A stretch of DNA of 926 nucleotides from Escherichia coli (GTDB lineage: Bacteria > Pseudomonadota > Gammaproteobacteria > Enterobacterales > Enterobacteriaceae): NCBI RefSeq assembly GCF_003334335.1, contig NZ_QOWQ01000138.1; one strand, given 5' to 3'. Numbering within the stretch: the stretch's first letter is position 1; every line of letters begins with the position of its first letter. This document shows, in pieces, positions 87-455 of the stretch. The notes under the pieces are model-generated. The model was not told the DNA's origin, ran no database searches, and was given only the letters and a program-made list of their open reading frames with translations. Position numbers and translations under genes: made by a program.

Positions 87-455
87 ATGGCAACAAAAGA
101 AGAAAATCAGAAACGTCTTCGTGAACTGGCTGGCCTGCTGGGGCGCGAGGCGGATATGTCGGGGAGTGCAGCGGATATCGCACAGCGTGTGGCAGAGTGG
201 GAAGAGGAGGTTTGCGCATCGGAAAATGAAATCGCAGATGTTGATGATACCGTTTATGAGCAGGCATACAGGAACACCGGTGAGGATGCTTTCGGTATTC
301 TGGAACGTATCATGCTTCTGAAGTGTTTTTACCTGTGCGGTGTTGACGATGAAACAGGTGAGCCTGTTGAGCATGTTGATGCTGGCAGAGTAATTCTGAT
401 GCCCCCCTCAGTGGCAAAAGACATGGTCAGGAGTGGAATGGCCGTTTATGCGTGA
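87..455 (+). CDS. FI: DNA-packaging protein FI-like (lambda gpFI family), 122 aa
   Basis: Complete ORF from ATG 87 to TGA 453..455 with a G-rich RBS upstream. It sits immediately upstream of clear gpFII and gpZ homologs, as in lambda (E-FI-FII-Z). Its size is close to lambda gpFI (about 130 aa). The N-terminus (MATKEE..RLRELAG..) and C-terminus resemble lambda gpFI as recalled from memory, with an acidic central segment. My recall of gpFI is imperfect, so the call rests mainly on synteny. Confidence 0.8.
   Translation: MATKEENQKRLRELAGLLGREADMSGSAADIAQRVAEWEEEVCASENEIADVDDTVYEQAYRNTGEDAFGILERIMLLKCFYLCGVDDETGEPVEHVDAGRVILMPPSVAKDMVRSGMAVYA
429..433 (+). promoter_or_regulatory. Putative Shine-Dalgarno (AGGAG) for the FII-like gene, inside the 3' end of FI
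   Basis: AGGAG at 429..433 lies 14 nt upstream of ATG 448, which is a long spacing. Initiation may also depend on coupling to FI termination at 453..455. Confidence 0.4.

Follow-up and report, generated by a model that had tools for sequence, protein, structure and literature searches.

We analysed a 926-base stretch of the Escherichia coli contig NZ_QOWQ01000138.1 (the window, meaning this whole stretch) and concentrated on the gene at 87-455, which encodes the DNA-packaging chaperone FI. The window is 100% identical to part of the phage PhiR5_1 (PV340545.1, 32863-33788), and prophages in ~26 complete E. coli genomes, O104:H4 strains among them, match it at 99.9% identity. Sequence related to the window is present in 1,857 of 5,426 complete E. 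coli genomes. In the window, the 33 bases that end E are followed by a 53-base spacer, by FI and FII and by the beginning of Z, and the annotated gene order in PV340545.1, Nu1-A-W-B-C/Nu3-D-E-FI-FII-Z-U-V, provides a complete lambda-type head-tail module around it. FI lies directly 3' of the major capsid gene E and 5' of FII, an order that lambda and phage 21 share. The features, all on the + strand, are as follows.

1..33, +: 3' end of the major capsid protein gene E, with the stop TAA at 31-33 (annotated coding sequence in PV340545.1)
40..70, +: GC-rich, terminator-like hairpin in the E-FI spacer, stem ~40-65, T6 run 65-70 (consensus scan, folding)
75..81, +: Shine-Dalgarno-like AGGGGGC upstream of the FI start (read from the sequence)
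87..455, +: FI gene, DNA-packaging chaperone FI, 122 amino acids (aa) (open reading frame, PF14000, phrog_92, annotation)
87..212, +: FI N-terminal helical domain, residues 1-42 (AlphaFold2 (AF2) helices, identity to relatives)
213..296, +: acidic, probably disordered linker, residues 43-70 (predicted local distance difference test (pLDDT), low identity, variability)
297..452, +: FI C-terminal domain, residues 71-122, predicted to bind the head (gpE)
210..445, +: mosaic cassette of linker and C-domain, left limit at the EWEEE-coding stretch, right limit at the FI stop and FII start (sliding identity, synonymous divergence (dS), natural hybrids)
448..801, +: FII gene, head-tail joining / head closure (annotated coding sequence; phrog_82, E 5.5e-51; NF049848 tail_join_FII)
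817..926, +: tail gene Z, 5' part, running past the window end (annotated coding sequence; phrog_27, phrog_9077)

The open reading frame (ORF) on the + strand at 87-455 starts with ATG and encodes 122 residues. A preliminary description of the window had placed it correctly, and the peptide quoted there, EWEEEVCASENEIADVDDTVYEQAYRNTGEDAFGILE, corresponds to FI residues 37-73. PhiR5_1 encodes the same protein (100% identity), annotated there as "DNA packaging protein FI", and both RefSeq (WP_001390684.1) and the phage record already name the ORF 'DNA-packaging protein FI'. Membership of the FI family, which had been suggested from the letters alone, is borne out by Pfam PF14000 (Packaging_FI, E 9.5e-14, query residues 3-119, model positions 1-131 of 131), by phrog_92 ('DNA packaging chaperone FI', E 4.6e-40, positions 1-127 of 128) and by the E-FI-FII-Z gene order. 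BLASTP against lambda gpFI (NP_040588) gave an E value of 2e-8 with 28% overall identity, and the protein has a net charge of -14 and an isoelectric point (pI) of ~4.3. ORF 87-455 is a real gene, an ordinary allele of the lambda-family FI that is already known and annotated. FI also matches phrog_2353 ('major head protein', positions 361-476 of 481, E 8.8e-14), and therefore some phage records carry, or are annotated with, a capsid-FI fusion. Such a fusion would be a 'Rosetta stone' hint of an interaction between E and FI, or could be an annotation artefact.

We built an AF2 model of FI on a 22-sequence family alignment. The N-domain is modelled with helices at residues 4-18 and 28-49 (pLDDT 76-82), residues 47-69 have pLDDT values below 50, and residues 73-121 of the C-domain adopt a small alpha/beta fold. 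By both fold-comparison methods, the best structural match of the modelled C-domain in the PDB was 2LSM, the nuclear magnetic resonance (NMR) structure of lambda gpFI residues 72-132 (Foldseek probability 1.00, template modelling (TM) score 0.70, root-mean-square deviation 2.5 Å, 51 columns, 24% identity), and 2LSM was also reached by sequence with the FI family profile (E 3e-16). FI therefore shares the layout of lambda gpFI, a helical N-domain and a 2LSM-fold C-domain with a low-confidence segment between them, in agreement with the two linked domains expected in the preliminary description.

The middle of FI is strongly acidic, as had been observed, with 13 D/E against 1 K/R over residues 37-73. 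The linker proper, residues 43-70, accounts for 8 D/E and 1 K/R within 28 aa (net -7). This acidity had been read as a departure from lambda gpFI, a contrast that disappears on inspection of the lambda linker itself, which contains 10-11 D/E and 1 K/R (net charge -9 to -10). All 22 family linkers examined are net acidic (-2 to -10), 24-39 aa in length, with few hydrophobic residues. Because an acidic linker is common to the whole family, the acidic middle of FI is a normal family linker and no anomaly. The FI linker is 12-24% identical to those of its relatives, and among 14 window-type alleles 36% of linker positions are variable, whereas the fraction is 10% for the N-domain and 13% for the C-domain. 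The family conserves the acidic, disordered character of the linker while its sequence is free to vary.

We compared FI to lambda gpFI and to its homologues in phage 21 and PhiR12_1. Identity to lambda gpFI is uneven along the protein, 43% in the N-domain (18/42), 12% in the linker (5/41) and 23% in the C-domain (12/52), and the relationship is detectable. The impression of lambda-like ends around an unlike middle thus stands for the N-domain and the linker, while the resemblance of the C-terminus to lambda lies mostly in its fold and residue pattern. FI is 10 residues shorter than lambda gpFI, with a linker of 28 aa versus about 39-40 aa, and its stop overlaps the FII start where lambda has an 11-nucleotide (nt) gap. 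The lambda N-domain is itself atypical, since most family members, even those with a lambda-type C-domain, carry an N-domain like that of the window. Nearly all of the invariant columns in the 22-sequence alignment lie within the N-domain, and across the family true conservation is restricted to this domain, contrary to the earlier proposal that both termini are conserved.

The closest classical relative is the phage 21 homologue (UMO75424.1; 'gp8' of M81255; 57% identity, E 1e-43), which shares the C-terminal GMAVYA and the overlapping FI/FII junction with the window FI. The two proteins are 79% identical in the N-domain and 62% in the C-domain, and their linkers are essentially unrelated (20%). 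Outside FI, the phage 21 head module from A to FII shows 91-99% protein identity to PhiR5_1. PhiR12_1 carries the commonest E. coli prophage allele of FI (XSB41627.1; e.g. P0034, 789 member sequences), the N-domain of which has 88% protein identity to that of the window, and the C-domain 37%.

Comparison of the window with PhiR12_1 at the nucleotide level reveals the limits of the divergent region. Identity is 92-100% across the E 3' end, the spacer and FI codons 1-42, falls to 41-53% over FI codons 43-122, and returns to 95-98% from the FII start on. In a sliding comparison, identity is 83-100% up to nt 210, 33-66% over 211-450 and 90-100% after 451. The steps are located at the EWEEE-coding stretch (~nt 209/210) and at the overlap of the FI stop and FII start (448-455), and therefore the exchanged unit comprises the linker and the whole C-domain (nt ~210-445). 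Synonymous divergence in the FI C-domain is saturated (dS 1.1-1.65), whereas in the same genome pairs it is 0.17-0.43 in FII, 0.21-0.38 in E and 0.05-0.08 in D. Thus, the cassette has a much older and separate history, rather than having evolved fast in place. Similarly, the C-domain dS of 1.65 relative to phage 21 identifies the cassette as an old, separate lineage. Two natural hybrids were found, P0073, in which a PhiR12-type N-domain precedes a lambda-type linker and C-domain, and P0005, in which a PhiR12-type N-domain is joined to a window-type C-domain. Among PhiR5_1, PhiR12_1 and phage 21, FI shows 45-57% protein identity and A, W, B, C, D, E and FII 88-99%. No other head gene varies nearly as much as FI among the phage-21-like E. 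coli prophages, including those of O104:H4 and Shiga toxin-producing E. coli (STEC), which are otherwise near-identical. Taken from these sequence comparisons, the pattern indicates that lambdoid phages swap the linker and C-domain cassette as a unit by recombination. The preliminary description had invoked mosaicism of the linker. Its observation is confirmed and its interpretation partly supported: the locus is mosaic, but relative to PhiR12_1 and phage 21 the divergence takes in the entire C-domain as well as the linker.

A divergent middle could also arise if a disordered linker under no constraint simply drifted in situ and no module were exchanged. The excess of variable linker positions among the 14 window-type alleles, the failure of linkers of different types to align (12-24% identity) and the low AF2 confidence in this region all agree with such drift. 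However, the divergent tract has abrupt boundaries and runs through the whole folded C-domain to its last codons, the C-domain dS of 1.1-1.65 compares with 0.05-0.43 in FII, E and D of the same genome pairs, and hybrids that recombine N-domain and C-domain types exist. Drift accounts for the variation within a type, not for the differences between types, and we consider it an unlikely source of the latter. Exchange of the linker and C-domain cassette remains our interpretation.

Next, we compared the capsid proteins that accompany the different FI types. The E proteins of PhiR5_1 and PhiR12_1 differ at 15 residues, which are clustered: 10 of them lie in residues 148-172 and two more at 182 and 187. 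This region (codons 141-190; L001 8426-8575 in PhiR5_1), the E patch, is a small mosaic patch with a proportion of synonymous differences (pS) of 0.89, versus 0.19 for the whole of E. We fetched 160 IMG/VR loci with close relatives of E (loci L008-L168) for an analysis of co-variation. The comparison comprised 98 unique haplotypes of E DNA and FI (60 PhiR12-type, 20 window-type and 18 phage-21-type), which are phylogenetically related and represent few independent events. All 57 haplotypes with the PhiR12-type E patch carry a PhiR12-type FI, and no other FI type accompanies this patch. In three exceptions a PhiR12-type FI stands beside a standard E patch, and the pairing is therefore not obligatory. 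Residue 187 of E fully separates the two remaining types, being F in 20/20 window-type and Y in 18/18 phage-21-type haplotypes, and PhiR5_1 and phage 21 differ within the E patch at 163 (I/T), 182 (Y/H) and 187 (F/Y), matching FI type.

E nucleotide sites in codons 141-180 share the most normalised mutual information with FI type (mean 0.52-0.53, maximum 0.89), and the value is down to 0.09-0.24 at E codons 221-340, which are physically nearer to FI. Four-gamete sites between PhiR12-type and other FI constitute 41 of 70 informative sites in E codons 191-342, compared to 10 of 51 in the patch. Therefore, recombination has broken the link of FI to the DNA in between and left its link to the E patch intact. 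The electrostatic properties of the two regions also vary together. The net charge of the E patch is -4 in PhiR5_1 and phage 21, -7 in lambda and -9 in PhiR12_1, and that of the FI C-domain is -3 in PhiR5_1 and phage 21, about 0 in lambda and +3 in PhiR12_1. Thus, the charges shift in opposite directions, with the +3 C-domain of PhiR12_1 (-3 in the window) paired with the more acidic E patch (-9, versus -4 for PhiR5_1), and the pairing looks charge-complementary (-9 with +3, -4 with -3).

On sequence grounds, the E patch is a candidate FI docking surface. Murialdo and Tzamtzis reportedly defined an 'EFi domain' genetically in lambda E in 1997, and the E patch may correspond to this domain of lambda gpE. 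We would give roughly even chances to the proposal that the FI cassette and the ~50-codon E patch are co-adapted docking pairs, kept despite recombination in the ~450 nt between them. If this is true, the FI-binding surface of the prohead can be read from natural variation. To our knowledge, published structures do not show the place on the prohead where the chaperone docks. The coupling of the E patch to FI is a cheap, testable pointer to that place, and is the sole item in this analysis worth follow-up. The identification of FI itself carries little weight, since this accessory packaging protein is well studied and the allele was already annotated correctly.

The FI cassette and E patch might instead diversify in an arms race with a host defence that senses capsid or packaging proteins, unrelated to assembly compatibility. 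FI and the 50-codon patch are the only strongly diverged parts of a head module that is otherwise 88-99% identical, and the ratio of nonsynonymous to synonymous divergence (dN/dS) of the FI C-domain, 0.56-0.57 versus PhiR12_1, exceeds that of E, FII and the FI N-domain (0.06-0.28). However, this ratio is below 1 and is unreliable given the saturated dS. PADLOC gave no match for FI and nothing tying it to known defence systems, and a literature search turned up no report of an FI-triggered defence system. Physical contact between FI and E is a simpler explanation of their coupling, and we judge an arms race to be unlikely.

Lambda gpFI is an assembly chaperone that aids the association of terminase and DNA with the prohead (PMC4856287, which cites Popovic et al. 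2012, Catalano & Tomka 1995, Davidson & Gold 1987 and Murialdo et al. for this role). According to the proposal given in that paper, gpFI attaches to the gpE lattice of the prohead and aids formation of the DNA-terminase-prohead complex. The paper and the references cited there also describe gpFI as a protein that stimulates assembly of this complex and DNA packaging and is absent from the virion (PMC4856287). Lambda Fi was scored essential in a CRISPR interference (CRISPRi) screen (PMC10695390).

To the gene identity, domain layout, fold match and mosaic boundaries described above we add a biochemical mechanism inferred by homology. By analogy to lambda, the FI C-domain would dock on the gpE lattice of the prohead, with the conserved helical N-domain held out on the flexible acidic linker. 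The N-domain could then help the terminase-DNA complex to find and engage the prohead, and this engagement would speed the start of packaging. A head-binding activity was reportedly assigned to the gpFI C-domain by Popovic and colleagues in 2012. The coupling between E patch and FI across the 98 haplotypes lends indirect support to the predicted gpE binding by the C-domain.

We are confident that the gene belongs to a lambdoid phage or prophage resembling phage 21 (PhiR5_1 type) and encodes its FI chaperone, with a predicted lambda-like action and the family linker inside an exchanged cassette. Several observations count against this assignment. Identity to the characterised lambda gpFI is low, at 28% overall and 23% in the head-binding domain. 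A phmmer search of the PDB with the single FI sequence returned chance matches only and missed 2LSM, and a scan of NCBIfam found no model that matches FI. Confidence in the AF2 model is moderate (mean pLDDT 71, predicted TM score (pTM) 0.40). Finally, for a protein with a net charge of -14 and a pI of 4.3, non-specific DNA binding, which is a step of the published model, is not self-evident.

Many prophage FI genes are truncated, frameshifted or fused (P0092, P0079, P0110, L059, L062, L127, L132), but there is a negligible chance that ORF 87-455 is likewise non-functional, whether a chance ORF or a decayed prophage remnant, and this is effectively excluded for the window copy, which is full length with a ribosome-binding site (RBS) and a full-length Pfam match, has an N-domain under purifying selection (dN/dS 0.16-0.28), and belongs to a phage whose record names a propagation host (E. 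coli C) and holds a complete head-tail gene set. We considered P0110 and P0113, in which an unrelated C-terminus follows an N-domain and linker of phage-21 type, as a third head-binding module and rejected them. In these sequences FI runs into the tape-measure gene, with FII through G/T deleted, and they are therefore deletion remnants. In P0110 (L169 4001-4390), FI is fused across the deletion directly to the tape-measure region. Locus L059 carries an 815-aa FI-J-like fusion ORF, and L062, L127 and L132 contain decayed prophage FI genes, several of them frameshifted or truncated.

The sequences surrounding FI are shared to differing extents with its relatives. The E 3' end (1..33) has 100% identity to PhiR12_1 and 97% to phage 21. 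The hairpin in the E-FI spacer has the sequence GCGGGGGCG-AAA-TGCCCCCGT followed by TTTTTT, was matched by the consensus scan at 42-62 plus the tail, and folds with -17.7 kcal/mol (z -3.5, equally stable shuffles 0/200). It is identical in PhiR12_1 and phage 21, whereas the lambda spacer carries another hairpin (AUGGCCC-UUCG-GGGCCAU) at this position. This putative element could act as a partial terminator, or could stabilise the mRNA, in setting the expression ratio of D/E to FI. Phage 21 has an annotated RBS at the position homologous to the Shine-Dalgarno-like motif at 75..81. The FII start ATG overlaps the FI stop (ATGCGTGA, 448-455), which suggests translational coupling of FI and FII. 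A promoter scan of the window found none, and an Rfam scan across it gave only sub-threshold snoRNA noise.

Further mosaic junctions are apparent on either side of FI. At the end of FII and start of Z (window ~781-926), identity to phage 21 falls from ~93% to 56-76%. The Z, U and V proteins of phage 21 are lambda-like (96-99% aa identity), and those of PhiR5_1 are only 66-82% identical to either. Upstream, Nu1, the terminase small subunit, is only 40% identical between PhiR5_1 and PhiR12_1 (L001 1842-2760 versus L005). The first ~400 nt of A are 66-79% identical between these phages and the remainder of A through E 94-100%. Nu1 together with the A N-terminus is a swapped module, related to cos specificity.
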